From Methanomassiliicoccales archaeon (lineage in GTDB: Archaea > Thermoplasmatota > Thermoplasmata > RBG-16-68-12 > SOIM01): a stretch of 64,000 bases of DNA. The notes below the pieces were generated by a model. That model was given only the letters and a program-made list of their open reading frames with translations. It was not told where the DNA came from and did no database searches. A program made the translations under genes and the position numbers. The stretch spans positions 21,922 to 85,921 of the forward strand of contig JAUVGH010000002.1 in assembly GCA_030593885.1 (NCBI GenBank), in the 5' to 3' direction. Shown here piece by piece: positions 7,782 to 33,902 of the stretch (its first letter is position 1; each line of letters starts with the position of its first letter).

Positions 7782-7840
7782 CCCTGCTGATTCTCTCTCG
7801 ATACCAGAATGTTATCAACTGGACTGAAGTTCCCGCAAAA

Positions 7841-7850
7841 TACTATATAT
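7841..7850 (+). promoter_or_regulatory. Archaeal TATA box (tactatatat) with a purine-rich BRE-like element upstream, serving the 7896 gene. A Shine-Dalgarno 'aggaggt' lies at 7884-7890.
   Basis: AT-rich TATA-like octamer ~45 bp upstream of the ATG at 7896. Strong SD 6 nt upstream of the ATG. Confidence 0.4.
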
Positions 7851-7895
7851 GTTATATGGTATAGTCTACATATCTGGAGGCAAGGAGGTCCATCC

Positions 7896-10531: not shown

Positions 10532-11914
10532 TCAAATGGGAGCTTTCTCCAACTGGCTGCCCACAATCTCGTTGGCAAGTTCCAGGAACTCCTCCTCGGT
10601 ACCGTTGGGTATGGTCGCTCCGGCAGCGATGTTGTGACCGCCTCCAACGCCTTCGAACTTCTCGCATGCTGTCTTCATTACGTGTGATAGATCCAGGCCC
10701 TTGGCCACAAGCTCCCTGGTCCCTCTGGCCGAGACTTTCACACCTTCATCTGAATTGGCAAAAGCGAAGAGTGGAACGCTGTTGTCCAGGTCACCCGACC
10801 CGAGAAGCATCCCGGCCGTTATTCCGATGACGCTGTCCTGGATCCTGCTCCCTCCATGAAAGTATTGTATGTGTTCTAGCCTCTCGATTCCTACTTCTTT
10901 GGCGACCCTGAGGGAGCTTACCAGAGCCCCTCTATGTCCTTTCAGAAGCATCATGGCGGAGTCAAGAGCCTCTTCCCTATCGCCCCTACAAAGGGCAAAT
11001 CCCACGTCCGCCTTCTCATATCTTCCGCATGAATTGAGCAGGGTCGCGAACTCCTTTGCCTCATGAAGCTCTGTTCCCTGTTCTTCCTTTGGAAAGAGGT
11101 AGACCTCACCCATCAACCTGTCTGCGGCGTCGGGATCCTGACCTGATGCAAGGACTATCTTCTTCAGTTCCGACAGAATCTTGTCCTTTTCCCATGGTTT
11201 GAGATCGACCCAGCTTCGGAATCCCTTGTCCTTTCTCAACTGGAGCCCCAGGCTGAACAGGAATTCCTTGCAAGCATTCCAATCACCTGAGAGCCCAGGG
11301 ACAAGCGGGTCATTGGCATATTGCAGCAACTTGACGAGAGGTCTCGTTTCCCGACCGAAGAATCTTGCGTCAGTTCTCCAATCCAGAACTCCCGCTCTGA
11401 GACCATCTTCCATTATCGTCCTGTTCGTACCCACAAGCCTCAGATTGGCCTGGTCCTGCATGTCCCCGACCGCACCGAGTATCGCAAGGGACGCGAGGTC
11501 CTTGTTCGCTTTCTCAAGTGCTACGGCAACCAGGTAAGCTGCTCCAGCTCCCGAGATGTCGAGGGCGCCGTCCCGTCCGACCCGATGCGGGTTGACCTCG
11601 GGAATCCTGTCCTGGTTGACGAATGAAGGTACATGGTGATCTGTGATGACGGCATCCATCCCGGACAGCATCTCAAGACTGCCACTGCCCAGATCGGTGA
11701 GCCACACGAGCTCCTTGTTCTCATCCTTCAGGCCCTCAACGACCTTCTCATCCAGGTTCTTGACGAAAACGACGGAATAATCCACACCAATCCCATCAAG
11801 CGCATGCGATGCGATTCCAGCCGCCGCTATTCCATCAGCATCGATGTGCGAACATATCTTCACTTCGGAACAAGTGCGGACCTTCTCCGCGACAGTTTTC
11901 GCCTTGGAGTGCAT
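10532..11914 (-). CDS. DHH-family phosphoesterase (RecJ-like DHH/DHHA1 protein)
   Basis: DHH motifs (HIDADG, ITDHHVP) and a C-terminal DHHA1-like GGGH motif. The ORF-track N-terminal extension to 12118 is rejected. The likely start is the ATG at 11914 (MHSKAKTVAEKV...). Confidence 0.8.
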   Translation of the reverse strand: MHSKAKTVAEKVRTCSEVKICSHIDADGIAAAGIASHALDGIGVDYSVVFVKNLDEKVVEGLKDENKELVWLTDLGSGSLEMLSGMDAVITDHHVPSFVNQDRIPEVNPHRVGRDGALDISGAGAAYLVAVALEKANKDLASLAILGAVGDMQDQANLRLVGTNRTIMEDGLRAGVLDWRTDARFFGRETRPLVKLLQYANDPLVPGLSGDWNACKEFLFSLGLQLRKDKGFRSWVDLKPWEKDKILSELKKIVLASGQDPDAADRLMGEVYLFPKEEQGTELHEAKEFATLLNSCGRYEKADVGFALCRGDREEALDSAMMLLKGHRGALVSSLRVAKEVGIERLEHIQYFHGGSRIQDSVIGITAGMLLGSGDLDNSVPLFAFANSDEGVKVSARGTRELVAKGLDLSHVMKTACEKFEGVGGGHNIAAGATIPNGTEEEFLELANEIVGSQLEKAPI

Positions 11915-12186
11915 CTCTACCTGTAATACGATTTGGGAATAAAAGAATGCGCATATCGTCGGGAAGACCTCGCAGTCAGTCCATATATTAAGAACTCTTA
12001 TATATGCATAAGTCCATTGAAACGCTATAAATCTAGGAGACCGAGGAGAGGGGAGAGACTTACTTGCGACTGCAAGATAGATTTCAGCCTCAATGGATAG
12101 ATGTGTAACCCTACACAATCTTAGCCATGCTTCTCAGTCTTTTGGGGTTTAACGCGCAGTACGAGTGATACCTAAGAGGTGAAAAA

Positions 12187-15100
12187 ATGAGGCGGGGTAG
12201 TAAAGTGGTCACAGCCCTCGACAAGATCAAGTCGACGGTCATGGTGACGTTGCTAGTCCTTGGAACGTTCGTTTTGGCGGTAAGTGTACCTGGTGAGGAA
12301 CCACCAGACATACCAGGCTGGCCGAACGACGGCGACTGGATTAACTATACGTATCGAGGAGAGAGAATTAGGGATTGGGAAGACAAGCCCTATGAGAACG
12401 ACCCGACACATGGGATAGCCAATGTCCAGCCGAAGGCGGTTGACATCGCATCTGGAGTTGACAAGAGTGGGGGAAATGCCGCATCTAATCCGGGCAACTA
12501 CACTTCTGTTCAATACCTATATGATGATGTTGACGGTGATAGCGACGGCTGTTCCGATATCGATGACGACTGGCTCTTCCTCAGGCAGAGAATTGCCGGG
12601 GATCCCAGACACGGTGGACAGTACGCGTACAAAGCGTACCACTGGGACATATTGCTGGAAGTTGACGGTGACCAGTGGAGCGAGTTCGTGGTCGACCTGA
12701 ACGGTGGAAATGGGTACTACAAGTTCGGAACCGTAGGTGTGTACTACAGCGACACTGACGACTACGAGTATGATCCAGATAATGATTGGGTCTGGCTCCA
12801 GCCAGCGACCGGGAAGAAGAACTTGTTCACCAACGCCCGGCTCATTGACTATGATGACGATGATGATGATAACGACCAATGGTGGATCGAGTACAAGGTT
12901 CCGATAACAGCCTTCACGGATCGGGACGATAACCAGCTGCTCTGTGCGGACACCGACTTCCTTCTGTTTTTCAGCACCTCTGCCTCAGCAACAAACCCTC
13001 TGCAGAAGGATTGGATGGGAGAGTTCGTTTTCGGTGAGCCGGCCAATATCACGGTTGTCAAGACAGTGGAGGAGGACATAGTAAAGCCGGGAGATACTCT
13101 TCACTACAAGATCTATTACAACAACACTGGAGAGTTCAATGCGGGCAATGTGTGGATCAACGATACGATACCTGACTACACGACGTTCAAAGAATCGAAT
13201 CCCAACTACAATTCGAGTTCTGGACAGACATACAGATGGCATTTCACGGACGTTGAACCTGGGAATCACACCATCTATCTGAATGTGACAGTGGACACGG
13301 ATGTGCCAGATGGCGAGGTACTTCGGAACGTTGCAGTTCTGAACTACACGGACACCGATGACAACGAGCTACCTGGCTCAGAGGATGAGACCGAGAATCC
13401 TGTTGCAGGCCCTTTCTTGAAGATGGCAAAGGAAGTTGATGTCGCAACTGCCGACCCAGGCGATGTGCTGCATTATGAGATCATCATGCAGAACACTGGA
13501 GGCGGTGGGGCGTACAACGTTACAGTAAACGATACCATACCTGAGCATACCACTTTCGATAGTTCATATCCAGACTATGATTCGGTAGATGGCAGAACCT
13601 ACACATTCATCATAGACAAGATTGCTGGAAAGACAAACTTCACCATTTTCCTGAACGTGACCGTTGATGCCTACACAGATGATGGGACGGTACTTGTCAA
13701 CTATGCGACAGCAGACTATAGGGACGCGAATGGCAACGTGTATGAAAGACTCTATGACTGGGCCAATGTGACGGTGACCGCTCCCATAATGGACGTCACA
13801 AAGATCGCTGATGTTACAACCGCTGACCCGGGCGATGAGATCACGTACACGCTCACCTATGACAACACTGGCACTGGCCAGGCTTCAGATGTGGTGATTG
13901 AGGACACGATACCGGAGCACACAACATTCGTCAGCTCCACACCCAATTACGACGAGGTTGATGGCAGAACCTACACCTGGAATATCGGTCTGGTCGATGG
14001 AGGAGATTCCGGAACCATTGCAATCACTGTCAAGGTTGACGCAGGAACAGCTAATGGTACGATTCTGACCAATGATGTCACTCTGGACTACGATGACGCT
14101 AACGGGAATCCGTACCCACAGGAAACTGACTCTGTGGATGTAACAGTGATCGCTCCTATTCTAACCCTTTCGAAGACGGCGAGCGTCGCCGAGGCCAACC
14201 CTGGAGACACGATAACGTACTCCATAAATTACGAGAACACTGGAAGCGGCAAAGCCACGAACGTATACGTCAACGACACGATTCCCAACGAGGTGACGTT
14301 CGTCACTTCATCGCCTGCATATACCAGCAAGAGCGGGAACACTTACATCTGGGCAATCGGTGACGTATGCGCTGGATGCAGCGGCATCATAACCATACAG
14401 GTCACGGTAAACGCGGCCGTTCCTGACGAAACGGTGATGAGGAACACAGTCACCCTGGACTACTCAGATGCAAATGGAAATCCGTACGCACAACTGTCCG
14501 ACTATGTGGACGTGACCGTCACAGCGCCAATAATGACTATAACGAAGGTCGCTGACGTTGGGACGGCGGACCCAGGAGATGAGATTACTTACACCCTCAC
14601 CTACGAGAACACAGGCACTGGCGATGCAGGAGGAGTGATCGTAAAGGACACCATACCCACAGACACGATATTCGTTAGTTCGAACCCTGCATACTCCAGC
14701 AAGACTGGAAATACATACACATGGAACGTTGGAACTGTGACAGCAGGCAGCAGCGGAACAATCACGATAGTGGTCAAGGTCAAGGCTGGAATAGCTGATG
14801 AGACGGTCCTTCTCAATACGGCAGTCCTGTACTACGAAGACGTCAACGGCAATCCATATCCGACCAAGGAAGACACTGCTGAAGTGACCGTAACCTCACC
14901 GATCATGACAGTTTCGAAGACGGCTGACGTCACGACCGCGGACCCAGGGGACGAGATAAACTACACCCTAAGCTACGATAACACAGGAACCGGAAACGCC
15001 AAGAACGTCAAGATAATCGATACTTTGCCGAGTGATGTGACATTCGTTACCTCCTATCCGGCATACAGCAGCGCCAGCGGGAACGTCTACACATGGAATG

Positions 15101-18100
15101 TTGGAGACGTTTGCGCAGGTTGCGGAGGAGAGATATACGTCATCGTCGAAGTGAACGCAGGAGTGGCTGATGGCTCAGTGCTCAGGAACTACGTCAAGAT
15201 GGAGTACACCGATAACAATGGCAATTCCCTGCCAGATGAGACCGACTACGTGGACGTGACAGTCACCGCACCTGTGATGACGATAACGAAGACAGCCGAT
15301 GTGACCACTGCTGATCCTGACGACCAAGTGGTCTACACGCTCTTCTACGAGAACACCGGTACGGGGGACGCCACCAATGTTGTGGTGAAGGACACCATTC
15401 CGAGCGAGGTGGATTTTGTCAGCTCAACGCCGACCTATGACAGCCAGAGCGGCAATGTCTACACGTGGAACGTAGGAGATGTTGGTGCTGGCGAGAACGG
15501 TACCATAACCATCACGGTCAAGGTCAAGGCCTACACACCAGACAAGACAGTGATTACGAACTATGTGACCTTGGACTACGATGATGCCAATGGAAATCCG
15601 ATTCCTCAAGAGAGCGACAGCGTCGATGTTACAATCACCGCACCGGTGATGACGATCTCAAAGACGGCGGATGTATCAGAGGCAGATCCGGGCGACGAGA
15701 TAACATACACGATAACCTACACCAACTCCGGAACTGGTCTGGCAACAGATGTTGTCGTCACTGACACCATACCGGCGGACACAACATTCGTCAGCTCAAC
15801 GCCAACATACGATAGCCAGAGCGGGAACACATACACGTGGAACGTCGGGGATGTCTCAGCCGGAAGTTCTGGGATAATAACAGTTGTGGTCAAGGTCAAG
15901 GCGGGAACGCCTGACGAGACCGTCCTCACGAACACGGTCACCCTGGATTACGACGATGCCAATGGCAATCCACAAGCCCAACAGAACGACAGCGTCGATG
16001 TTACGGTCACCGCACCGATTATGACAGTCAGCAAGGTCGCGGACGTGGCAACAGCGGATCCAAGTGACCAGATCACCTACACGATTGAATACAAGAACAC
16101 CGGAAGCGGGGACGCGACCAATGTGAAGGTAGTTGATACGATACCGGCAGACACTACTGCTGTCAGTGCGACACCCATGTGGGACTCGTCTTCCGGAGAT
16201 GATTTCACCTGGAACATCGGAAGCGTGTCAGCAAGAGGGTCTGGAACGATCACCTTTGTGGTCAAGGTCGACGTTGGAACCCCGGACGGAACACTGCTCA
16301 GGAACTGGGCCACTCTTTCATACGCAGACGCCAACGGGAACGGACTCCCAGATGAGAAGGACTACGCAGATGTCACTGTCACGGCACCCATCATGACGAT
16401 CAGCAAGATAGCGGATGTCTCAACCGCCGATCCGTCGGACATCATAACATACACGCTGACCTACGAGAACAATGGCAATGGTGAAGCGACCAATGTCTGG
16501 GTCAACGACACCATACCCGCAGACACAGACTTCGTCAGCTCAACACCAGGATACACAAGCATGAGCGGGAACACCTACACATGGTTCATCGCAAGTGTTG
16601 CAGCCAATTCAGACGGAACGATAACGGTGAAGGTCAAGGTCAAGGTCGGAACACCTGACGGAACGGTTCTCAGGAACACGGTCACCCTGGACTACGGTGA
16701 TGCCAACGGAAATCCACAGGGCCAAGAGAGCGACTACGTTGATGTCCTGGTCACAGCACCAATATTCAGCTTCAGCAAGACAGCAGATGTCGTGGAGGCC
16801 GACCCAGGCGATTGGATCAACTACACCCTCTACTACAAGAACACTGGAACCGGAGACGCCACGAACGTGTACATCAACGACACGATACCGTCCGATACAA
16901 CGCTAGAGAGCACCAGCCCAGCTTACACATCCTCCTCAGGGGACACGTACATATGGAATCTGGGAACGGTGACGGCGGGCGAGGAAGGCAACATCATAAT
17001 CACGGTCACCGTCGATGCCTTCACACCAGACGGCACATTGCTGAGGAATACTGCCACTCTTGACTACTCGGACGCGAGCGGCAATCCCTATCCACAGATG
17101 GATGACTACGCCGACGTCACAGTGACCGGTCCTGAGATGACTATCAGAAAGGTCGCGGATGTGACAACGGCTGATCCAGGAGATGACATCACCTACACTA
17201 TTACATACAAGAACAACGGAGCTGGAACGGCGACCGATGTCGTCGTTGAGGACACAATACCGGCAGATACAGTGTTCGTCAGCTCAACGCCAACTTATGA
17301 TAGCCAAAGCGGGAACACTTACACCTGGTTAATCGGTGACGTGTGCGGCGGATGCGACGGCACCATAGAGATCGTGGTAAGGGTAAAGGCTGGAACGCCT
17401 GACAAGACCGTTCTCACAAACACGGTCACACTCAACTACGACGATGCGAACGGAAATCCACAATCAGAGGAAAACGATAGTGTGAATGTCGTGGTGACCG
17501 CACCGGTGATGACCATCAGCAAGGTGGCAGACGTTACGACAGCGGATCCAGATGATGAGATAACCTACACGATAACATACAAGAACACCGGAACCGGAGA
17601 GGCAACGAACATCTACATAAACGACACCATTCCGCCGGATACGACATACGTCAGTTCCAATCCCACCTACACCAGCGCCAGCGGGGATACATACACATGG
17701 TTCATAGCATCCCTCGGAGCAGGCCAGAGCGGGACCATAGAGCTGGTCGTCAAGGTCGATGTCGGTGTGCCCGACAAGACCCTCCTGAGGAATCAGGTAA
17801 CACTTGACTACGCAGACGCCAACGAGAACCCACTGCCCAGGCAGTCCGACAAGGCGGATGTCACCGTCACGGCGCCCGTGTTCACCTTCAGCAAGAAGGC
17901 TGATGTCAGCACGGCAGACCCGGGCGATGAAATCGTTTACACCATCGAATACGAGAACACTGGGACTGGAGAGGCGACCGACGTATATGTCAATGACACA
18001 ATACCAGATGATGTCGACTTCGTTAGTTCTAACCCAGCCTATACGAGCGTGAGCGGAAACACGTACACGTGGTTTATGGCGAGCGTTGCAGCAGGAACTG

Positions 18101-21100
18101 GTGGGACGATAACCATTGTGGTGGAAGTCAAAGCCGGAATTCCGGATGAAACGCTTCTGCGTAACACCGCCACGCTTGACTACTCGGATGCCAACGGCAA
18201 TCCATATCCACAGATGAAGGACTGCGCAGATGTCAGGGTCACTGCACCCATTATGACCATAACCAAAACGGCCGACGTCAGTACGGCCGATCCCGACGAT
18301 GAGATCACCTACACCCTCGCATACGAGAACAAGGGGACTGGTGAGGCAACCGATGTATACATCAACGATACCATTCCCGCAGATGTGGATTGGGTCAGCT
18401 CCAATCCTGGATACACGAGCGTTAGCGGCCTTACCTACACATGGTTCTTCGCCAGCCTTGGAGCGGGTACGAGCGGAACCATAACGATAGTGGTGAAGGT
18501 CAAGGTGGGTACGCCTGATGGCACAATCCTGACCAACGATGTCACACTCGATTACTCGGACGCAAACGGCAATCCGTTGCCCCAGGAGAGCGACAGTGTG
18601 AATGTCAAGGTGACCGCCCCGATAGTGACAATCGCAAAGACGGCAGACGTGTCAACAGCCGATCCAGGAGATGAGATAACCTACACAATATACTACAAGA
18701 ATACCGGAACTGGGGAGGCAACTGACCTCTACATCAACGATACGATACCGACAGACACCGAATACGTGAGTTCGAGCCCCGTCTACGATGAAGTGAACGG
18801 TCTAACATATACATGGAAGATCGCAAGCCTCGCGGCGGGTGCCGACGGAACAATAACCCTCGTGGTGAAGGTCAAGGTCGGGACACCTGACGAGACGCTC
18901 TTGAGGAACAGGGTGACGCTCGACTATTCGGATGCGAACGGGAATCCATATCCGCAGAAGGATGACACGGAAGATGTCGTCGTGACCGCACCGGTCATGG
19001 CCATCAACAAGGTAGCGAACGTGGCTACGGCTGACCCAGGCGATTTCGTAAACTACACAATCTCGTACGAGAACAGCGGCACAGGCATCGCAACGAACGT
19101 ATGGATAAACGATACCATACCTGCAGATACCACCTTCAAGGAATCCACACCAAACTATGACTCGGTCTCAGGGGACACGTACACCTGGTTCTTCTCAACA
19201 GTGGCTGCGAAGTCCAGCGGGGAGATCCACATCAAGGTGCAGGTGGATGCCGGAACAGATGACGGCACGATCCTCAGGAACACGGTCACCATGGACTACG
19301 CGGATGCCAACGAGAACCCGTACACCCAACTCTCCGATTACGTGGACGTTCTCGTGACAGCTCCGGTATTGAACCTGACCAAGTCGGCAGACGTCTCGAC
19401 AGCAGACCCAAGCGATACGATAACATACACGGTGGAGTTCGAGAACTCCGGCACCGGGAATGCCACGGACGTGTACGTCAATGACACCATTCCAACGGAT
19501 GTGGAGTTTGTCAGCTCCAATCCAGTCTATCTATCGAAGTCTGGGAACACGTACACTTGGTACTGGGCGGTGGTAGCGGCAAACACCACGGTCACAATAA
19601 CCATTGTTGTGAAGGTCAAGACCTACACGCCAGACGAGACGGTTCTGCACAACATAGCGACACTGGACTACGCTGACGCCAACGGCAACCCATACCCGAC
19701 TGAGATGGCATGGGCAGACGTGACAGTCACCGCTCCCATTCTGGAGATCACGAAGACGGCGGACGTGACAACCGCCGATCCAGGAGATGAGATAACCTAC
19801 ACAATATACTACAAGAATACCGGAACTGGAGAGGCAACTGACGTCTATATCAACGACACGATACCTGATGACGTGGACTTCGTGAGTTCAAGTCCGAACT
19901 ACACGAGCGTCAGCGGGAAGACCTACACATGGTTCTTCTCCAGCTTGGGAGCCGGAGTGGATGGAACCATAACCATTACAGTTGAGGTCAAGGTCGGCAC
20001 GCCGGATGAAACACTGCTCAGGAACCTGGGGACACTTGACTTCTCCGATGCTAACGGCAACCCATATCCGAGGCTCAGAGATTACGCAGATGTTGATGTA
20101 ACCGCACCAGTCATGGAGTTCTCCAAGACGGCGGACGTGGCTACCGCAGACCCAGACGATGAGATCACCTACACATTGACATACAAGAACATTGGAACAG
20201 GAGTGGCAACGAACGTCAAGATAACAGACACCATACCCGGCGACGTTGTGTTCGTGAGCTCGACTCCGAACTACACCAGTGTCAGTGGGAACACATATAC
20301 CTGGGACATTGGAACACTAAATCCAGGCGACAGCGGGACCATCACGATAGTTGTCAGGGTCGAAGTTGGCACGCCAGACGAGACTCTGCTCAGAAACTTC
20401 GCCACGCTCGACTACTCGGACGCCAATGAGAACCCGTACGAACAGATGAAGGACTATGCGGATGTCGACGTGACCGCGCCTGTCATGGAATTCTCCAAGA
20501 CTGCAGACGTTACGACAGCGGATCCAGATGATGAGATAACCTACACTATCACCTACAAGAACACAGGAACCGGAGTGGCAACGAACGTCAAGATAACAGA
20601 CACCATTCCAGGAGATGTTGTGTTCATATCCTCGACCCCGAATTACACGTCGGTATCTGGCAATACGTACACCTGGGACATAGGAACTCTGAATCCAGGA
20701 GACAGTGGGACCATAACCATAGTGGTGAAGGTCAAGGTTGGCACGCCGGACGAGACCTTGCTACGCAACGTGGCAATCCTGTACTACTCGGACGCCAACG
20801 AGAATCCGTACACGCCGATTGAGGATCATGCAGATGTCGATGTGACGGCACCTGTTATGAGATTCTCCAAGACAGCGGACGTGACGACTGCCGATCCAGA
20901 CGATGAGATCACCTATACAATAACATACGAGAACGTGGGAACCGGAGACGCAGCCAACGTGAAGGTCACCGACACAATACCAGCTGATGTTACCTTCGTT
21001 AGCTCGACACCGACATATACGTCGGTATCTGGCAATACGTACACCTGGGACATTGGAACGGTGACAGCTGGCTCTAGCGGTACCATCACAATAACCGTCA

Positions 21101-24100
21101 AGGTAAAGGTGGGCACGCCGGACGAGACCTTGCTACGCAACGTGGCAATCCTGTACTACTCGGATGCCAATGAGAATCCGTACACACCAATTCAGGACAC
21201 AGCTGACGTGACAGTCACAGCGCCTGTCATGGAGTTCTCCAAGACGGCTGATGTCACAACAGCAGATCCAGACGATGAAATCACTTACACGATATCCTAC
21301 GAGAACGTTGGGACCGGAGTCGCCAAGAACGTAAAGATAACCGACACCATACCAGCCGATGTTATCTTCGTGAGCTCGACTCCGAACTACACCAGCGTCA
21401 GTGGGAACACATATACATGGGACATTGGGACTCTTAATCCAGGAGATAGTGGGACCATAACGATAGTGGTGAAGGTCAAGGTGGGAACGCCTGACAAGAC
21501 CCTGCTGAGGAATGTGGCCACACTGGACTACTCGGACGCTAACGAGAACCCGTACGACCAGATGACCGACCACGTGGATGTGACCGTCACAGCGCCTGTC
21601 ATGGAGTTCTCGAAGTCAGCGGACGTTACTACCGCAGACCCTGACGACCCGATCGTGTACACCATAACGTACGAGAACGTCGGGACAGGAGACGCGTCCA
21701 ACGTGAAGATCACAGACACCATACCAGCCGATGTTGTGTTCGTGAGCTCGACCCCGGCCTACACCAGCGTCAGTGGGAACACGTACACGTGGGACATTGG
21801 GACCCTGGCCGCTGGCAGCGGAGGAACAATCACCATCAACGTGAAGGTGAAGGTCGGAACACCTGATGAGACCCTGCTGGAGAACGTGGCGACACTCTAC
21901 TACGCCGACGCGAACGGCAACGACTACACTCCCTTGACAGACAACGCGTTCGTTAAGGTCACAGCACCAGTGATGGAATTCTCCAAGACAGCGGACGTAT
22001 CAACTGCAAACCCAAGCAGTCTGATAACCTACACCATAACCTACAAGAACATTGGAACCGGAGACGCCACGAGTGTCCTGATCAGTGATGAGATACCGGA
22101 GGATGTGGAGTATGTCTCTTCAACGCCCACGTACACCATGAAAGTGAATCTGACATACATCTGGAACATCGGAGACGTTGCCGCGGGAACGGGAGGAAGC
22201 ATCACCTTGGTCGTCAAGGTGAAGGCCTACACACCCGACAAGACGCTGCTCCACAACGTGGCCACCCTTTACTATGAGGATGCGAACGGCAACGGCTACA
22301 CCCCAATCGAAGACCACGCGGACGTCATAGTGACCGCACCTGATATGAGGTTGGTGAAGAGCACAGACGTGACAACTGCAGATCCAGGCGACGAGTTTGT
22401 CTACACGATCCACTACGCGAATGTTGGAACGGGAGTGGCGACACACGTGACAATCGTCGACACCATACCGGCTGACACGACCTTCATATCTTCGACGCCT
22501 GCTCCGGACAGCGTTGTCGGCAACGTGTACACCTGGTACATCGGAACCGTGAATCCAGGCGATTCTGGAGACATCTTCATAACCGTTAGAGTGAACCTCT
22601 TCACACCTGACAAGACACTGCTGCGAAACGTGGTCACGCTGGACTATGACGACGCGAACAGCAACCCATACCCGACGCTGAGAGACAGCGTTGATGTCAA
22701 GGTGACCGCTCCTGTCATGGAGTTCTCCAAGTTCGCAAACGTATCCACTGCTGATCCCGGTGACCTGATAACCTACACTATCACTTACGACAACGTCGGC
22801 ACTGGCAAGGCAACCGAAGTGAAGATCACAGACACTCTGCCTGTGGGGGTGGAGCTGGTCTCCGCCACGCCATGGTACACCTCGGTATCCAACAGGACCT
22901 ACACGTGGGACATCGGCGACCTCGGGCCTGGCGAAGGAGGTACCATAATCATTGTCGTCAAGGTGACGATAGGAACGGCGGACAGGACTTTGCTGCACAA
23001 CTCGGCGACCCTGTACTACGCGGACGCCAACGGAAATGACTACCCACCCATGGAGGACAGCGCGGATGTGACCGTAACAGCACCTGTCATGACCTTCTCC
23101 AAGTCGGCAGATGCCACTACGGCTGATCCAGGCGACCAGATAACCTACACCCTGACCTACAAGAACATCGGCACAGGCTGGGCATCATTGGTTGTGATTG
23201 TGGATACTATTCCTGATGATGTGGTCTTTGTCAGCTCTAGCCCGATGTATGACAGTGTCAGCGGCACTGAGTATACCTGGAATCTGGGCGACGTCGCACC
23301 TGGCACTGGCGGAACCATAACGATCATCGTGAAGGTCAAGGTGGGCACACCAGATGAGACACTCTTGCACAACGAGGCGACTCTGGACTACTCTGATGCC
23401 AATGGGAACTTCATCGAGAGATTGAGCGATTATGCGGACATCACAGTGACCGCGCCCATAGTGCGCATCACCAAGTCGGCTGACGTCTCAGAGGCTGACC
23501 CAGGTGACATGATCATCTACACGATAACCTACGAGAACGTCGGAACGGGCTGGGCAACGCTCGTAGAGATCGTGGACACCATACCTGCAGAAACCACATT
23601 GGTCGCCACCAATCCACGGTACACCAGTATGAGTGGGAATGATTACGTCTGGTCCATTGGCAATCTGGCTCCTGGCGACGGTGGCACCATTGAGATCAAG
23701 GTCATTGTGAATCCTGGTACGCCGGACAAGACCTTGTTGCATAATGTGGTCACTTTGGATTGGGCAGACCGCAACGGGAATTACTATCCGCAGTTGAGCG
23801 ACTACGCAGACGTTATTGTCACAGCACCTGTGATGACCCTTGAGAAGTCCGCGGGAGACACTGAAATTGCCGCATACGTGGTGGCAGACTTCAGGCTGAG
23901 AATCGCCGGAGAAAAGTGGCACGATGTGAGACTCAACCTCTACAGCGGCAACCAGTCAGTGAGATTCGCGTCAATCACACGATATCCGGGCTCTCCCGAC
24001 GACCAATCCGTCACCCTGTATGACGTGAAGATAAATCTCCTTGCCAACTTCACGGCCGTCATCGAATACACACCATCGGACGACCCGATCAACGGCCAAA

Positions 24101-25860
24101 TCTGGGGTGACAATCCCTGCTGGCTCATCCTCACCTTCCCGGATGGGAAGGATATCAGGCTATTCCACAACTTCAATGTGAGGCATAACGAGACTTGGAT
24201 ATGGGTCATCGACGATTGGGCTAAGATCCTAAGGCACGCGCCAATAATCTACGAAGCAACCATTCCATACACGATCAACTACGAGAACATAGGGACGGGC
24301 GACGCCACCGGTGTGGTCGTCACGGACACCCTCCCGGTCGGCAGCGTGATCCTTGATTACAATCCGCTATACGACTCGTGCGTGGACAATGTGTGCACCT
24401 GGAACATCGGTGATGTCGCTTCAGGAGAAAGCGGCACCATAACGATCAACATCAGCTACGTCTTCGATATCGACGGCGAGGAGTTGATCAACGAGGTCAC
24501 ACTGGACTACTCGGATGCAAACGGCAACTTCATTGAGCAACTCTACGCTTCCGCGTCTTCAACCCTCATCAAGCCTGAGCTTTGGAGTTCACCCAAGGAC
24601 TACTATGGCGGCGAGTCAGGACCGATATTCACGTCTGGTACGAACATCCCGCCTGAGGCGGTCATCAGCTCTCCTGTTGATGGTTCCTACCACTATGTCG
24701 AGGATATGATCCTGTTCGATGGATCCGCCAGCTCTGACGATGTGTGGATAATGTCCTACCTTTGGGACTTCGGAGATGGGGGTGTAAGCACTGATGTCAA
24801 TCCACAGCATATGTACGCCATGGCTGGAATATACGCGGTCAGGCTGACCGTTACCGATGACATGGGAGACGTCTCCACCGCCTATGTGCTCCTTATCATC
24901 AGAGAGAAGAGCCTGAGCGCAGTCATCGAGCAACCTACCAAAGAGATTATCGCTGAGGGGACGACCCTAGAATTCTCGGGCAGAGCGGTATACGAAGGTT
25001 ACCAGGATGTGTTCTACTGCACCTGGGACTTCGGAGATGGAGCCATCTCAGAGGGCTGCACAACAACGCATCTCTACGGCAATCAGGGCACGTACACCAT
25101 CACACTGACGGTGTTCGATGTGTTTGGCCATACGTCTTCTGATTCCACGGATATAACCGTGCTCAACGTCAGGCCGCAGGTCAAGGTTGCGAAGAAGATG
25201 CATGGAGCCGAGGGAACCCCGATGTACTTCACCGCAGCTGTGACCGATAAGGGGACGGACGACCTCACTCTGACCTGGGACATGGGAGACGGGACGGTTG
25301 TTGTTGGCAATGACTTCTACTACACCTACCTGGACGATGGGAAGTACGTGGTGAGATTGACAGTGGATGATGGGGACGGTGGAGTTGTGGTCAAGATCAT
25401 CACGGCGACCATACAGAACCTCAATCCGAAGGCATCTTTCGACGGCAACAAGCTCGGACACGTGCACGAACCTGTGTACCTATCGGCCGGCGTTTCGGAC
25501 GCAGGAGCGCAGGACACGTTCTCATTTGTCTGGGACATGGGCGACGGGACGATCATCGAGGGGACTCACGAACCAGTTCACATCTACCATCAGAGCGGCA
25601 TCTACATGGTGACGCTGACTGTGACCGACGAGGACGGTGCGCAGGGAGTCTCAGTTCTGAAGGTGCATGTGATCGAGACACTGGATTCGACGGTGAACCG
25701 CCCAACGTCATGGAAGGACACCGCGACCCCGATGGTAATCACGGCAGACGGGAAGATCGCCGACGACTTCATGCCACTTGCAGCTCTTGTGCTGGTGATC
25801 CTGAGCACGCTCGCACTGGCTGCTGGTACATACGTCTGGTACAACTCAAAGAAAGAGTAA
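12187..25860 (+). CDS. Giant cell-surface protein (4557 aa): signal/TM, N-terminal Asp-rich domain, about 30 tandem DUF11 (conserved repeat domain) units, 4 PKD domains, C-terminal TM anchor
   Basis: Uninterrupted 13.7 kb ORF. SD 'aggtga' sits before the ATG. The ~123-aa unit 'APVMTISKTADVTTADPGDEITYTITYKNTGTGxATNV..DTIP...FVSS.P.Y.S.SGNTYTW.IG...G.SGTITI.VKVK.GTPD.T.L.N..TLDY.DANGNPY' repeats about 30 times. PKD-like 'WDFGDG...TVTD' occurs four times near the C-terminus. Final hydrophobic helix plus 'NSKKE' tail. Confidence 0.9.
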   Translation: MRRGSKVVTALDKIKSTVMVTLLVLGTFVLAVSVPGEEPPDIPGWPNDGDWINYTYRGERIRDWEDKPYENDPTHGIANVQPKAVDIASGVDKSGGNAASNPGNYTSVQYLYDDVDGDSDGCSDIDDDWLFLRQRIAGDPRHGGQYAYKAYHWDILLEVDGDQWSEFVVDLNGGNGYYKFGTVGVYYSDTDDYEYDPDNDWVWLQPATGKKNLFTNARLIDYDDDDDDNDQWWIEYKVPITAFTDRDDNQLLCADTDFLLFFSTSASATNPLQKDWMGEFVFGEPANITVVKTVEEDIVKPGDTLHYKIYYNNTGEFNAGNVWINDTIPDYTTFKESNPNYNSSSGQTYRWHFTDVEPGNHTIYLNVTVDTDVPDGEVLRNVAVLNYTDTDDNELPGSEDETENPVAGPFLKMAKEVDVATADPGDVLHYEIIMQNTGGGGAYNVTVNDTIPEHTTFDSSYPDYDSVDGRTYTFIIDKIAGKTNFTIFLNVTVDAYTDDGTVLVNYATADYRDANGNVYERLYDWANVTVTAPIMDVTKIADVTTADPGDEITYTLTYDNTGTGQASDVVIEDTIPEHTTFVSSTPNYDEVDGRTYTWNIGLVDGGDSGTIAITVKVDAGTANGTILTNDVTLDYDDANGNPYPQETDSVDVTVIAPILTLSKTASVAEANPGDTITYSINYENTGSGKATNVYVNDTIPNEVTFVTSSPAYTSKSGNTYIWAIGDVCAGCSGIITIQVTVNAAVPDETVMRNTVTLDYSDANGNPYAQLSDYVDVTVTAPIMTITKVADVGTADPGDEITYTLTYENTGTGDAGGVIVKDTIPTDTIFVSSNPAYSSKTGNTYTWNVGTVTAGSSGTITIVVKVKAGIADETVLLNTAVLYYEDVNGNPYPTKEDTAEVTVTSPIMTVSKTADVTTADPGDEINYTLSYDNTGTGNAKNVKIIDTLPSDVTFVTSYPAYSSASGNVYTWNVGDVCAGCGGEIYVIVEVNAGVADGSVLRNYVKMEYTDNNGNSLPDETDYVDVTVTAPVMTITKTADVTTADPDDQVVYTLFYENTGTGDATNVVVKDTIPSEVDFVSSTPTYDSQSGNVYTWNVGDVGAGENGTITITVKVKAYTPDKTVITNYVTLDYDDANGNPIPQESDSVDVTITAPVMTISKTADVSEADPGDEITYTITYTNSGTGLATDVVVTDTIPADTTFVSSTPTYDSQSGNTYTWNVGDVSAGSSGIITVVVKVKAGTPDETVLTNTVTLDYDDANGNPQAQQNDSVDVTVTAPIMTVSKVADVATADPSDQITYTIEYKNTGSGDATNVKVVDTIPADTTAVSATPMWDSSSGDDFTWNIGSVSARGSGTITFVVKVDVGTPDGTLLRNWATLSYADANGNGLPDEKDYADVTVTAPIMTISKIADVSTADPSDIITYTLTYENNGNGEATNVWVNDTIPADTDFVSSTPGYTSMSGNTYTWFIASVAANSDGTITVKVKVKVGTPDGTVLRNTVTLDYGDANGNPQGQESDYVDVLVTAPIFSFSKTADVVEADPGDWINYTLYYKNTGTGDATNVYINDTIPSDTTLESTSPAYTSSSGDTYIWNLGTVTAGEEGNIIITVTVDAFTPDGTLLRNTATLDYSDASGNPYPQMDDYADVTVTGPEMTIRKVADVTTADPGDDITYTITYKNNGAGTATDVVVEDTIPADTVFVSSTPTYDSQSGNTYTWLIGDVCGGCDGTIEIVVRVKAGTPDKTVLTNTVTLNYDDANGNPQSEENDSVNVVVTAPVMTISKVADVTTADPDDEITYTITYKNTGTGEATNIYINDTIPPDTTYVSSNPTYTSASGDTYTWFIASLGAGQSGTIELVVKVDVGVPDKTLLRNQVTLDYADANENPLPRQSDKADVTVTAPVFTFSKKADVSTADPGDEIVYTIEYENTGTGEATDVYVNDTIPDDVDFVSSNPAYTSVSGNTYTWFMASVAAGTGGTITIVVEVKAGIPDETLLRNTATLDYSDANGNPYPQMKDCADVRVTAPIMTITKTADVSTADPDDEITYTLAYENKGTGEATDVYINDTIPADVDWVSSNPGYTSVSGLTYTWFFASLGAGTSGTITIVVKVKVGTPDGTILTNDVTLDYSDANGNPLPQESDSVNVKVTAPIVTIAKTADVSTADPGDEITYTIYYKNTGTGEATDLYINDTIPTDTEYVSSSPVYDEVNGLTYTWKIASLAAGADGTITLVVKVKVGTPDETLLRNRVTLDYSDANGNPYPQKDDTEDVVVTAPVMAINKVANVATADPGDFVNYTISYENSGTGIATNVWINDTIPADTTFKESTPNYDSVSGDTYTWFFSTVAAKSSGEIHIKVQVDAGTDDGTILRNTVTMDYADANENPYTQLSDYVDVLVTAPVLNLTKSADVSTADPSDTITYTVEFENSGTGNATDVYVNDTIPTDVEFVSSNPVYLSKSGNTYTWYWAVVAANTTVTITIVVKVKTYTPDETVLHNIATLDYADANGNPYPTEMAWADVTVTAPILEITKTADVTTADPGDEITYTIYYKNTGTGEATDVYINDTIPDDVDFVSSSPNYTSVSGKTYTWFFSSLGAGVDGTITITVEVKVGTPDETLLRNLGTLDFSDANGNPYPRLRDYADVDVTAPVMEFSKTADVATADPDDEITYTLTYKNIGTGVATNVKITDTIPGDVVFVSSTPNYTSVSGNTYTWDIGTLNPGDSGTITIVVRVEVGTPDETLLRNFATLDYSDANENPYEQMKDYADVDVTAPVMEFSKTADVTTADPDDEITYTITYKNTGTGVATNVKITDTIPGDVVFISSTPNYTSVSGNTYTWDIGTLNPGDSGTITIVVKVKVGTPDETLLRNVAILYYSDANENPYTPIEDHADVDVTAPVMRFSKTADVTTADPDDEITYTITYENVGTGDAANVKVTDTIPADVTFVSSTPTYTSVSGNTYTWDIGTVTAGSSGTITITVKVKVGTPDETLLRNVAILYYSDANENPYTPIQDTADVTVTAPVMEFSKTADVTTADPDDEITYTISYENVGTGVAKNVKITDTIPADVIFVSSTPNYTSVSGNTYTWDIGTLNPGDSGTITIVVKVKVGTPDKTLLRNVATLDYSDANENPYDQMTDHVDVTVTAPVMEFSKSADVTTADPDDPIVYTITYENVGTGDASNVKITDTIPADVVFVSSTPAYTSVSGNTYTWDIGTLAAGSGGTITINVKVKVGTPDETLLENVATLYYADANGNDYTPLTDNAFVKVTAPVMEFSKTADVSTANPSSLITYTITYKNIGTGDATSVLISDEIPEDVEYVSSTPTYTMKVNLTYIWNIGDVAAGTGGSITLVVKVKAYTPDKTLLHNVATLYYEDANGNGYTPIEDHADVIVTAPDMRLVKSTDVTTADPGDEFVYTIHYANVGTGVATHVTIVDTIPADTTFISSTPAPDSVVGNVYTWYIGTVNPGDSGDIFITVRVNLFTPDKTLLRNVVTLDYDDANSNPYPTLRDSVDVKVTAPVMEFSKFANVSTADPGDLITYTITYDNVGTGKATEVKITDTLPVGVELVSATPWYTSVSNRTYTWDIGDLGPGEGGTIIIVVKVTIGTADRTLLHNSATLYYADANGNDYPPMEDSADVTVTAPVMTFSKSADATTADPGDQITYTLTYKNIGTGWASLVVIVDTIPDDVVFVSSSPMYDSVSGTEYTWNLGDVAPGTGGTITIIVKVKVGTPDETLLHNEATLDYSDANGNFIERLSDYADITVTAPIVRITKSADVSEADPGDMIIYTITYENVGTGWATLVEIVDTIPAETTLVATNPRYTSMSGNDYVWSIGNLAPGDGGTIEIKVIVNPGTPDKTLLHNVVTLDWADRNGNYYPQLSDYADVIVTAPVMTLEKSAGDTEIAAYVVADFRLRIAGEKWHDVRLNLYSGNQSVRFASITRYPGSPDDQSVTLYDVKINLLANFTAVIEYTPSDDPINGQIWGDNPCWLILTFPDGKDIRLFHNFNVRHNETWIWVIDDWAKILRHAPIIYEATIPYTINYENIGTGDATGVVVTDTLPVGSVILDYNPLYDSCVDNVCTWNIGDVASGESGTITINISYVFDIDGEELINEVTLDYSDANGNFIEQLYASASSTLIKPELWSSPKDYYGGESGPIFTSGTNIPPEAVISSPVDGSYHYVEDMILFDGSASSDDVWIMSYLWDFGDGGVSTDVNPQHMYAMAGIYAVRLTVTDDMGDVSTAYVLLIIREKSLSAVIEQPTKEIIAEGTTLEFSGRAVYEGYQDVFYCTWDFGDGAISEGCTTTHLYGNQGTYTITLTVFDVFGHTSSDSTDITVLNVRPQVKVAKKMHGAEGTPMYFTAAVTDKGTDDLTLTWDMGDGTVVVGNDFYYTYLDDGKYVVRLTVDDGDGGVVVKIITATIQNLNPKASFDGNKLGHVHEPVYLSAGVSDAGAQDTFSFVWDMGDGTIIEGTHEPVHIYHQSGIYMVTLTVTDEDGAQGVSVLKVHVIETLDSTVNRPTSWKDTATPMVITADGKIADDFMPLAALVLVILSTLALAAGTYVWYNSKKE
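13047..24560 (+). repeat. Tandem array of about 30 in-frame ~369-bp coding repeats (DUF11 units) inside the giant gene. Central copies (about 20050-21600) are near-identical at the nucleotide level.
   Basis: Recurrent nucleotide strings (e.g. 'gatccagatgatgagataacctacac', 'ggcaatacgtacacctgggacat') and near-identical successive protein units. Confidence 0.85.
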
Positions 25861-25868
25861 TCGACTCT

Positions 25869-25895
25869 CCAACAACCAACCCTTTTCCCTTTTTT
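25869..25895 (+). terminator. Oligo-T tract (cccttttcccttttttcat) immediately 3' of the giant gene; archaeal-type terminator
   Basis: Pyrimidine/T-rich run within 35 nt of the stop codon. Confidence 0.35.
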
Positions 25896-26018
25896 CATAT
25901 GCACAGCGGGAGCCAGCGTCCTTTCCCTGAATCTTCGCCGTACGAAGCCTGTTTATAGAAAATTACCAATAATACGATATCAATAGATGGATTGACACTG
26001 GGGTAACAGTGCTGGTGG

Positions 26019-33780: not shown

Positions 33781-33902
33781 AACGATTCCCATCGGGAATG
33801 GACCCGCTGACACTTCTTCTGGCCGCTTCCGTTTTTACTCTGATTGGCGTGATTGCAGGGATCGCTACGGTACTCTTCCCGGGACTTGGTAGAATTTCCT
33901 AG
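33781..33902 (+). pseudogene. Truncated, diverged duplicate of the tctA 5' end (upstream leader plus first ~33 codons; MDPLTLLLAASVFTLIGVIAGIATVLFPGLGRIS*)
   Basis: 33781-33886 is ~87% identical to 37267-37372. The first 60 nt are ~95% identical ('aacgattcccatcgggaatggacccgctgacacttctt...'). Confidence 0.6.

Follow-up and report, generated by a model that had tools for sequence, protein, structure and literature searches.

Introduction

Very long polypeptides in which tandem Ig-like domains extend a terminal ligand-binding region are familiar from SiiE and from the RTX adhesins of the LapA and MpIBP type. The stalks of these proteins consist of BIg domains rigidified by Ca2+, and the proteins leave the cell by type 1 secretion and carry an N-terminal retention module.

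In Gram-positive adhesins and pilins (CnaA/CnaB and the SpaA family) each repeat makes its own Lys-Asn or Lys-Asp isopeptide bond, which resists force and proteases (PMC12617251). The CLIPPER adhesin B9T28_05395 of Acinetobacter silvestris provides a crystal structure (PDB 9IFR) of a domain in which such a bond is present; Lys and Asn form the intramolecular bond, Asp is catalytic, and the bond adds roughly +35 C of thermostability and makes the domain resistant to proteinase K (PMC12617251). Among archaea, PMC12617251 cites Methanothermobacter DUF11 aggregation proteins that are reported to stabilise cell aggregates (Sumikawa et al. 2019).

We describe here a giant gene in a 64,000-nucleotide stretch of DNA (the window) from an uncultured Thermoplasmata archaeon. 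We consider it probable that the open reading frame encodes a genuine giant surface fibre, a stapled and C-terminally anchored stalk that presents a head.

Results

Organisation of the gene and its product

Coordinates are those of the window, and features lie on its plus strand unless stated otherwise. The gene (12187..25860) is one reading frame of 4,557 codons plus stop without interruption, as a sequence-only reading of the window had claimed. A Shine-Dalgarno-like GAGGTGA (12176..12182), read from the sequence, is situated 4 nt 5' of the ATG and favours this ATG, at 12187, as the start codon. Directly 3' of the stop are the T-runs TTTT and TTTTTT (25883..25895), a possible archaeal terminator, and downstream of these, 5' of the next gene, is a candidate TTTATAGA box (25953-25960). 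The dN/dS against orthologs is about 0.07-0.11 in well-covered segments, which indicates purifying selection on the reading frame, and this ratio, the Shine-Dalgarno sequence before the ATG and the T-run past the stop together argue that the gene is real. Scans of the window for tRNAs and Rfam families gave no matches, and a six-frame search found no CLIPPER units elsewhere in the window. There are also antisense reading frames within the array, such as 22120-22998 on the minus strand, which we take to be by-products of the repetitive codon composition.

Of the 4,557 residues, about 90% are in thirty CLIPPER and four PKD domains. PF01345 (DUF11, now named CLIPPER, in Pfam) matches with 1449 bits (cut-off 24.6) and the NCBIfam model TIGR01451 with 1121.6 bits (cut-off 24), each in 30 stretches, and PKD_4 (PF18911) and PKD (PF00801) reach 179.8 bits (cut-off 27) and 110.2 bits (cut-off 23.5), each in four stretches. 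The sequence-only reading had counted about 30 DUF11 units, followed by four C-terminal PKD domains and a transmembrane anchor, and had taken the product for a cell-surface fibre or adhesin. Both databases agree with its count of units, the Pfam stretches and the hydropathy with its PKD domains and anchor, and domains and hydropathy together support an adhesin-like giant surface protein. Its unit length of about 369 bp requires correction, as the 29 tandem units U01-U29 (13024..23811) are each exactly 372 bp (124 aa) long; 28 of them (U02-U29, aa 404 to aa 3875) are in perfect register with zero indels, and an independent repeat search recovers 27 copies spaced 372 nt. The limits that it gave for the array, 13047-24560, are close to the nt ~13024-24558 that we measure with the last unit included.

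Only two hydrophobic segments are seen in a hydropathy scan of the protein, at aa ~14-36 and aa ~4524-4551. The first falls in an N-terminal signal-like segment (aa 1-35; 12187..12291), in which a basic n-region (RR, K, K, K) is followed by the hydrophobic core VMVTLLVLGTFVLAV, and which is probably a cleaved Sec signal. The second is a C-terminal transmembrane helix (aa ~4528-4550), followed by the short tail YNSKKE (25768..25857), with a membrane topology suggested by hydropathy, and homologs have the same C-terminal layout with basic tails such as RRKRR and RGRLVK. Between the repeat array and this helix are the four PKD domains (24622..25677, outer limits approximate), with W[DE][FM]GDG motifs at aa 4193, 4280, 4364 and 4449.

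The protein does not show the sorting signal of an archaeosortase substrate. No PGF-CTERM or other sorting-signal model of NCBIfam or Pfam matches the whole protein or its last 65 residues at E<=10, and the residues ahead of the C-terminal helix, DDFMPLAAL, contain no PGF, PEF or VPXXXP motif.

The isopeptide triad

Lys12, Asp46 and Asn102 are invariant in 28/28 of the in-register units (U02-U29). U01 has the triad after an N-terminal offset, and U30 has the Asp and the Asn together with a Lys that lies upstream of an insertion, bringing the count to 30/30 units; in four homologs whose arrays are of 14-33 units, no unit lacks the triad either. A profile of the unit matches 9IFR in the PDB (E=2.9e-5) with the triad aligned, such that K12 corresponds to chain K10 (Lys-715), N102 to chain N101 (Asn-806), while D46 falls on the Asp in the motif LNDTL. 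The aligned Asp counts as residue 749 of the 9IFR protein and PMC12617251 writes Asp-748, and since the neighbouring position has no Asp we take these to be one residue. Because the triad is kept in all of the units, each of the 30 archaeal domains is predicted to staple itself covalently through a Lys-Asn isopeptide bond, with the CnaA-like fold and the Lys-Asn proximity predicted from sequence and profile alignment.

The head domain and the inserted module

The signal segment is followed by a beta-rich, unannotated head domain (aa 36-283; 12292..13035), in which the motif FSTSAS-x-TNPLQKDWM is conserved and a DxDxDG-like loop is present. It has no Pfam or NCBIfam match at E<=10, and neither a sequence-profile match nor a significant Foldseek match in the PDB. 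It does match 148 cluster representatives (50% identity), mostly at the N-terminus of long proteins, and the invariant residues are …YHWD…, the DxDxDG-like loop and STSAS-x-T[ND]PLQKDWM. These homologs stand almost always directly after the signal segment of very long proteins, with CLIPPER stalks, SpaA-type (SpaA_2) stalks, or LTD and Peptidase_C25 bodies as partners. An AlphaFold2 model of the head built on a 26-sequence alignment from the representative search has a pLDDT of 81.7 and a pTM of 0.85; a model built from 8 close sequences had a pLDDT of 53 and was unusable.

The spacing between the last two units is 268 aa instead of 124, and the last unit, U30 (23812..24558), is a split CLIPPER domain. 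Residues 3876-3887 form its first strand with the Lys (…VMTLEK) and residues 4026-4124 the remainder, and between the two is an unannotated module of ~138 aa (aa 3888-4025; 23848..24261) with the motifs RIAGEKWH, YPG-PD-Q and NVRHNETW. The module is conserved at the same position in family members with 14, 20 and 33 units, and has no Pfam or NCBIfam match. The only other database matches, seven in number, are in fragments in which PKD sequence follows the module, with a PKD-like end before it in two, and a profile search of the PDB matches only in the flanking PKD part (PKD domains of the collagenase ColH).

It is quite possible, although we put this forward tentatively, that the head and the inserted module are undescribed domain families, with the head as the functional novelty. 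The head could be a new module, widely shared among the surface fibres of archaea and other microbes, that binds a ligand at the tip (or is even catalytic or attaches covalently). If this is true, then the U30 insert, which is placed between the first and second strands, would be a second new module, held by the isopeptide staple of its host domain.

In the fibrillar-adhesin class of PMC12617251, a tandem-repeat stalk within a long surface protein goes together with an export signal, an anchor and an adhesive domain distal to the anchor. The present protein has the stalk, a signal-like segment and an anchoring helix, with the unannotated head as a candidate for the adhesive domain, and we place it in this class as a member that is exceptional in length but otherwise ordinary. 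We infer the label 'adhesin' from this architecture, and the head resembles none of the known adhesive domains, which would also suit a protein that is not an adhesin, but is instead a structural part of the envelope (S-layer-associated, sheath or spacer) or an aggregation factor like the Methanothermobacter DUF11 proteins, with the stalk spacing cells or layers. The setting of the gene points the same way, as its conserved neighbours also encode large proteins that are secreted or anchored in the membrane (FG-GAP/ASPIC, Big_7, TSP3, InhA-MAM-like, Kelch/BNR and NosD beta-helix). However, the isopeptide signature is missing from most DUF11 porins of the S-layer type, whereas all 30 units here have the triad, and the combination of one head without repeats at the far end, a long stalk of repeats and one anchor is that of fibrillar adhesins (PMC12617251). 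The occurrence of the head on unrelated stalks and on C25 peptidases also fits a modular head for binding or presentation. We therefore consider a structural or aggregating role unlikely, and favour the reading of the protein as an adhesin-like anchored fibre.

Age of the repeat array

The sequence-only reading had proposed a rather different history for the array, with near-identical copies due to recent duplication or concerted evolution, a probably strain-variable copy number and an uncertain assembled count. The five units U20-U24 (20092..21951) are indeed the most self-similar and the youngest sub-block, at 69-81% nucleotide and 75-89% amino acid identity between units, and unit-to-unit identity elsewhere is about 55-73%. 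However, the nearly identical copies described at 20050-21600 are not seen: units of this block differ from each other at about 70-115 positions per 372 nt, TRF reports 75% matches over the block, and identities to U20 by repeat search are 80, 74, 82 and 75%. The highest inter-unit DNA identity in the array is 81%, and synonymous differences within U20-U24 are at pS 0.53-0.75 (dS about 0.9 to saturated) as against pN 0.07-0.17.

Only three exact inter-unit matches of at least 40 nt (56, 53 and 44 nt) are present in the 10.8-kb array. The longest, 56 nt between U19 (19774..19829) and U16 (18658-18713), is in register and looks like a short gene-conversion tract, and the in-register match of 53 nt between U21 (20740..20792) and U22 (21112-21164) is also conversion-like. 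Such in-register tracts between units are 50-170 nt long. Those in other assemblies, with mosaic tracts in U21 of L001 and U12 of L004, could be assembly chimeras.

A further measure of age comes from a comparison set of four related lineages (L001-L004, five assemblies). Over the part that each covers, all four are colinear with the window and have their units in the same order, and every unit has its own one-to-one ortholog, with 80-95% nucleotide identity (three lineages, compared unit by unit), whereas no paralogous unit exceeds 84%. The sole exception is U21 compared with L001, in which ortholog and paralog are about equal (79.6 vs 79.3%). With each unit paired in this way and the closest units near synonymous saturation, recent tandem duplication is not supported. 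Concerted evolution of the array as a whole is likewise at odds with the ortholog and paralog identities and with the pS of 0.53-0.75, and what stands of that proposal is confined to the short tracts of 50-170 nt. A weaker form of the expansion claim does hold, in that U20-U24 is the youngest expansion, and in a relative with 20 units (L005) these five correspond to just one or two.

For identical amino acids the same codon is used with a frequency of 0.43 (0.39 expected) outside U20-U24 and 0.53 (0.40 expected) inside. In neither place is the same codon rarer than codon usage would lead one to expect, and selection for codon divergence as a means of suppressing recombination is therefore rejected in favour of plain saturation.

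We propose that the array is old, and that its units diverged to near synonymous saturation while purifying selection held the protein sequence. U20-U24 would be the latest expansion, yet older than the split of the four sampled lineages, and short in-register gene conversion would swap 50-170 nt between units without homogenising the array.

Copy number and reliability of the assembly

Copy-number variation at the strain level is not seen among L001-L004, in which the order and number of units agree with the window over the part that each covers. More distant members of the family do have other copy numbers, with 14, 15, 20 and 33 units as compared to 30 here, and a proposal of variable copy number stands in this weaker form; the family also sometimes has two genes in tandem. 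The claim that the array is a place where short-read assemblies collapse or expand has a similar fate. The gene family does often break assemblies elsewhere, in that 9/15 related loci end or have a 100-N gap inside the gene, including two records labelled 'chromosome' that have 100-N gaps there, but a high risk of collapse within the window is not supported, as no exact match between units exceeds 56 nt. Truly identical extra copies could have been collapsed in the same way in all of the assemblies. The self-similar block, the conversion-like tracts, the 14-33 units of homologs in other genomes and the broken loci are the observations that favour recent and variable duplication, and against these are the ceiling of 81% on inter-unit identity, the synonymous divergence within U20-U24, the 56-nt limit on exact matches, the closeness of units to their orthologs in three lineages (save U21 with L001) and the constancy of the units in L001-L004. 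We consider a recent, strain-variable array very unlikely, and prefer an old array in which copy number would shift only across longer evolutionary distances.

That the reading frame or its length is an assembly artefact, either a chimera of shorter DUF11 genes or a mis-joined repeat, is most improbable, since although related genes are often contig break points, and L003 has deletions of 60 nt and 53 nt with a frameshift and L001 a mosaic U21, L001 also has a full-length ortholog of 4,560 aa that differs in length by one 9-nt insertion, L002 covers the whole array, L004 covers 27 units in a gap-free, colinear alignment (88.7% identity overall), the genes flanking the giant reading frame are syntenic in the relatives, dN/dS is about 0.08 across the array, and units that are at most 81% identical to any other are unique enough to assemble.

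Discussion

The architecture suggests a plausible model for how the protein is displayed. Export would be by way of the N-terminal signal-like segment, and the single C-terminal helix would hold the protein in the cytoplasmic membrane with its short basic tail in the cytoplasm. Outward from the membrane there would then be the four PKD domains, the CLIPPER domain with the ~138-aa insert, 29 more CLIPPER domains of 124 aa, and the head of ~250 aa at the tip. With covalent staples in its domains the stalk may be resistant to heat, proteases and force, with a length of ~130-150 nm, an estimate at roughly 4 nm per Ig-like domain, and it could hold the head at a distance from the cell, where the head may attach to a surface, a particle or another cell. 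As the family with its 14-33 units shows, the length of the stalk is tuned over evolutionary time by gain and loss of units in the middle of the array with both ends fixed.

The main value of these observations is corrective, in that there is no ground for marking the locus as a hot spot of recent change in its repeats. It offers instead a clean and very long archaeal CLIPPER stalk, with the triad in all 30 units and an indel-free 124-aa register in 28, and thus a natural test case both for whether archaeal CLIPPER domains form isopeptide bonds and for how arrays of neighbouring domains that are 55-89% identical escape misfolding. The head and the insert are in addition candidate new domain families.

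The likeness to the Acinetobacter silvestris adhesin B9T28_05395 is close, as the domain family is the same, the triad positions of 9IFR align with those of the archaeal units, and in both proteins a stalk of tandem CLIPPER domains lies between a distinct head at the N-terminus and an anchor at the C-terminus (PMC12617251). The two differ in several respects. B9T28_05395 is a Gram-negative protein of 2,129 aa with a stalk of CLIPPER and cadherin-like domains, an OmpA-like anchor and a CshA-like head, whereas the archaeal protein has 30 units in 4,557 aa, a transmembrane helix as its anchor and an unannotated head. The Cys-x-x-Cys disulfide of 9IFR is absent from the unit consensus here, in which CxxC occurs only in U04, U06 and U12 and elsewhere in the unit, and the insertion of ~138 aa into one unit is a feature of the archaeal protein, unlike B9T28_05395.

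The Methanothermobacter proteins are also archaeal, with tandem DUF11 domains and a fibrillar-adhesin-like character, a likeness that we draw from their description in PMC12617251. They belong to a different archaeal class, whereas the present family is found in Thermoplasmata MAGs, and no head, inserted module or PKD base such as those seen here is mentioned there for them.

The principle of a self-made isopeptide bond in each repeat is shared with the Gram-positive adhesins and pilins, although in the archaeal protein there is no anchoring by sortase or LPXTG and no pilus polymerisation, and the stalk is one polypeptide of 30 domains rather than a series of polymerised subunits. As compared to SiiE and the adhesins of the LapA and MpIBP type, the archaeal protein has a stalk with predicted covalent staples, a probably Sec-like export and a C-terminal transmembrane helix as its anchor.

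Results

The open reading frame at 12187-25860 runs on the + strand for 4,557 codons with no interruption, as the sequence-only reading had held, with a Shine-Dalgarno motif (GAGGTGA) upstream of its ATG and T-runs downstream of its stop codon. Its product (the giant protein) matches PF01345 (DUF11) at 1449 bits against a Pfam cut-off of 24.6, and the earlier count of about 30 DUF11 units agrees with 30 stretches each of PF01345 (Pfam) and TIGR01451 (NCBIfam), here U01 to U30 from the N-terminus. Further Pfam matches, to DUF7619, DUF7507, Chlam_OMP6, and DUF7927, overlap these units; DUF7507 and DUF7619 are close relatives of DUF11 (PMC12617251). There are only two hydrophobic segments, one at aa ~14-36 that follows basic residues and resembles a signal, and one at aa ~4524-4551, followed by YNSKKE, that would anchor the C-terminus and leave a positive-inside tail. 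The proposed C-terminal PKD domains and transmembrane (TM) segment are likewise present, with four PKD stretches (Pfam) ahead of the second segment, and this C-terminal layout is the same in homologs; no archaeosortase-type sorting signal was detected with Pfam and NCBIfam models. The protein is 14% Thr and contains 654 Asp and Glu residues. AT skew on the coding strand is strongly positive (0.23-0.28) across the array (14000-22000), which we read as a by-product of the amino acid and codon composition of the repeats and not as a replication signal; the antisense ORFs within the array, 22120-22998 among them, seem to be by-products as well.

The repeats have a period of 372 bp instead of the ~369 bp first proposed. 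The boundary motif V-x-[VI]-[TI]-[AGS]-P recurs at a spacing of exactly 124 residues, units U02-U29 (aa 404-3875, with the protein cut at aa 280+124k) are in perfect register with zero indels, and an independent repeat search returned 27 copies spaced by 372 nt. The near-identical copies described at ~20050-21600 do not exist as such: the five units U20-U24 (20092-21951), which form the block with the highest pairwise unit identity in the array, are 69-81% identical in DNA and 75-89% in protein. TRF reports 75% matches for this block, and in the independent repeat search the identities to U20 are 80, 74, 82, and 75%. By the Nei-Gojobori method, U20-U24 pairs have pS of 0.53-0.75 (dS ~0.9 to saturated) and pN of 0.07-0.17, with means for all unit pairs of 0.71 and 0.28 respectively. 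Where two units share an amino acid, its codon is also shared at 43% of positions outside the block (39% expected from codon usage) and at 53% within it (40% expected), so that synonymous sites are essentially randomised. Only three exact inter-unit matches reach 40 nt in the whole 10.8-kb array (56, 53, and 44 nt), and each is in register. The U20-U24 block is younger than the remaining array, yet not recent.

The host is an uncultured member of Thermoplasmata, with relatives under the labels Thermoplasmata or Methanomassiliicoccales archaeon. Besides the giant protein, its 90%-identity cluster contains four proteins, all from other assemblies, with DNA for three loci from ENA (L001) and JGI (L002 and L003); a fourth locus, L004, is from a GenBank MAG (Thermoplasmata archaeon RS_5_45) whose head domain is 95% identical. 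The L001 ortholog is full-length at 4,560 aa, a 9-nt insertion being the sole length difference, the whole array is covered in L002, and the L004 alignment, which takes in 27 units (the gene's initial 10,864 nt), is gap-free at 88.7% identity. L003 is nearly identical to L002 (99.5-100%) apart from a 60-nt in-frame deletion in U25 (alignment gene coordinates ~9819-9879) and a 53-nt deletion in U28 (~10943-10996) that causes a frameshift, and these are either assembly errors or a real truncated allele. Window units match their positional orthologs at 80-95% identity, and no non-orthologous unit exceeds 84%; the units, U20-U24 included, therefore predate the split of the compared lineages. The suggested copy-number variation is not seen at this distance, where orthology is unit by unit and each assembly is colinear with the window over its extent. 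Values of dN/dS against the orthologs are ~0.07-0.11 in well-covered segments, reflecting purifying selection and therefore a functional gene. We note that dS between the window and L001 is uneven (head, 0.24; array, 0.51; U30 and its insert, 0.29; PKD and TM region, 0.11), which suggests either between-lineage recombination or faster change within the array.

At larger distances copy number does differ, with 14 units in L006 (2,577 aa), 20 in L005 (3,318 aa), and 33 and 15 in the first and second genes of CP070751 (4,775 and 3,067 aa), all complete homologs. The L005 array is colinear with the window at its start (units 1-11) and at its end (the final three), the extra window units are mid-array, and U20-U24 correspond to one or two L005 units; the array therefore gains and loses units internally over evolutionary time. 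The two CP070751 genes, from a related Thermoplasmata MAG, are tandem giant paralogs separated by 345 nt (CP070751.1 4717010-4740886, L011 and L008), and JAGLME01 also has two paralogs, on separate contigs (L004 and L006).

Exchange between units was sought by scanning for 60-nt windows with identity of 95% or more to an in-register paralog in the same genome and of 88% or less to all orthologs. A few lineage-specific tracts were found: in the window, U19/U16 and U21/U22 tracts (the 56- and 53-nt matches); in L001, a mosaic U21 resembling its own U22 at offsets ~60-168 (97-98%) and its own U20 at ~216-324 (100%), with these resemblances spanning 100-130 nt; in L004, ~170 nt of U12 with 98-100% identity to its own U08; and a short tract common to U21 and U23 in L002. 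They resemble gene conversion over short distances, a mild version of the concerted evolution proposed earlier that has not homogenised the array. They could also be assembly chimeras.

The assembly risk raised for the array is low for the window itself, where units are distinct and related assemblies agree over their extent, but the general caution has a basis. Nine of fifteen related loci from GTDB genomes have a contig end or a 100-N gap within the homologous gene, with scaffold gaps in L007 (14716-14815) and L015 (12550-12649) and ends inside the gene in L009, L010, L012, L013, L014, L016, and L017. Assemblies often break within this gene family, 'chromosome' records included, and if additional, fully identical copies had been collapsed, no short-read assembly would show it.

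PF01345 has been renamed CLIPPER in a study that solved the structure of one such domain (PDB 9IFR), from an Acinetobacter silvestris fibrillar adhesin, in which an isopeptide bond raises the melting temperature from ~45 C to ~80 C and protects against proteinase K (PMC12617251; Protein Sci 2025). A profile of 28 window units matches 9IFR (E=2.9e-5), aligning unit Lys12 with chain residue 10 (Lys-715), Asn102 with chain residue 101 (Asn-806), and Asp46 with the Asp of LNDTL, which is residue 749 by our own count of the deposited chain and must be the Asp-748 of PMC12617251, because there is no Asp at the adjacent position; the numbering of Lys-715 and Asn-806 agrees exactly. This triad is invariant in 28/28 in-register units and identical in the offset U01; in the split U30 the Asp and Asn lie within the HMM match and the Lys upstream of the insert. 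The K/D/N residues are present in every unit of all four complete homologs. By homology, the window units probably share the CLIPPER fold and side-chain geometry, and the Lys-Asn bond is predicted to form in them.

The N-terminal head (aa 36-283; 12292-13035) has no Pfam or NCBIfam match even at E<=10. An exhaustive HMMER search found homologs in 148 cluster representatives, 95 of them with the full-length domain, usually starting at residue ~20-60 in proteins of up to 4,714 aa. Some of these proteins carry CLIPPER stalks, one a SpaA_2-type stalk, and several an LTD with a C25 peptidase, and the head is therefore not tied to CLIPPER stalks; P0028, P0031, P0040, and P0046 (~1,800 aa) begin with the head, contain a lamin-tail domain, and end in a C25 peptidase of the gingipain type. 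An AlphaFold2 model from a 26-sequence alignment is confident and beta-rich (pLDDT 81.7, pTM 0.85), with no significant PDB match by Foldseek and none by sequence profile. Invariant residues include the motif FSTSAS-x-T[ND]PLQKDWM and a YHWD…DxDxDG-like stretch. The ~138-aa insert (aa 3888-4025) sits between the Lys-bearing first strand of U30 and the remaining domain, and is kept at the equivalent position in homologs with 14, 20, and 33 units. Elsewhere it is rare, with seven matches, in fragments with PKD sequence after the insert and, in two, a PKD-like end also before it; Pfam, NCBIfam, and PDB profile searches gave it no annotation. Both head and insert may be new domain families.

The giant gene is flanked by an opposite-strand DHH/DHH-CID/DHHA1 gene and a gene for a 1,750-aa Kelch/BNR-like protein. 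It lies in a stretch (2919-36451) that codes for large proteins, secreted or membrane-anchored (FG-GAP/ASPIC, Big_7, TSP3, InhA-MAM-like, the giant protein, the Kelch/BNR-like protein, and two NosD beta-helix proteins), is syntenic in L001-L003, and looks like a conserved surface-protein island. Compared with the window, L001 carries one more gene, of the RlaP family, placed between those for the TSP3 and InhA-like proteins, and downstream it has small toxin-antitoxin-like genes that are absent from the window. Three secreted neighbours with a signal-like N-terminus and without a TM anchor end in a common motif of ~45 aa, F[ND]x[TS]xxP[YF]HL[QRK][AE]L[ST]G…[ML][TL]AG[QH][AG]YWI[NH][VF]…[LW][TS]V-end, at 5250-5387 (ORF 2919-5390), 10330-10466 (ORF 7809-10469), and 33285-33421 (ORF 31283-33424), and possibly at the C-terminus of the minus-strand ORF 33899-36451. 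The motif has no Pfam match at E<=10 and may serve these proteins as a common tail for sorting or docking.

Discussion

We propose that the giant protein would be exported and held by its C-terminal helix, with a base made up of the PKD domains and U30, the CLIPPER domain that bears the insert. The 29 further CLIPPER domains would make up a stalk, each self-stapled by a Lys-Asn isopeptide bond and together stiff and resistant to proteases and force, with the head presented at its tip. At ~4 nm per Ig-like domain, we estimate a stalk length of ~130-150 nm. The main functional rival to an adhesin is a structural or aggregation role. The reading of the protein as a cell-surface fibre or adhesin is supported at the level of its class, within which we infer an adhesive role: the giant protein is a real, very long, and ordinary member of the recently characterised CLIPPER/DUF11 fibrillar-adhesin-like class.
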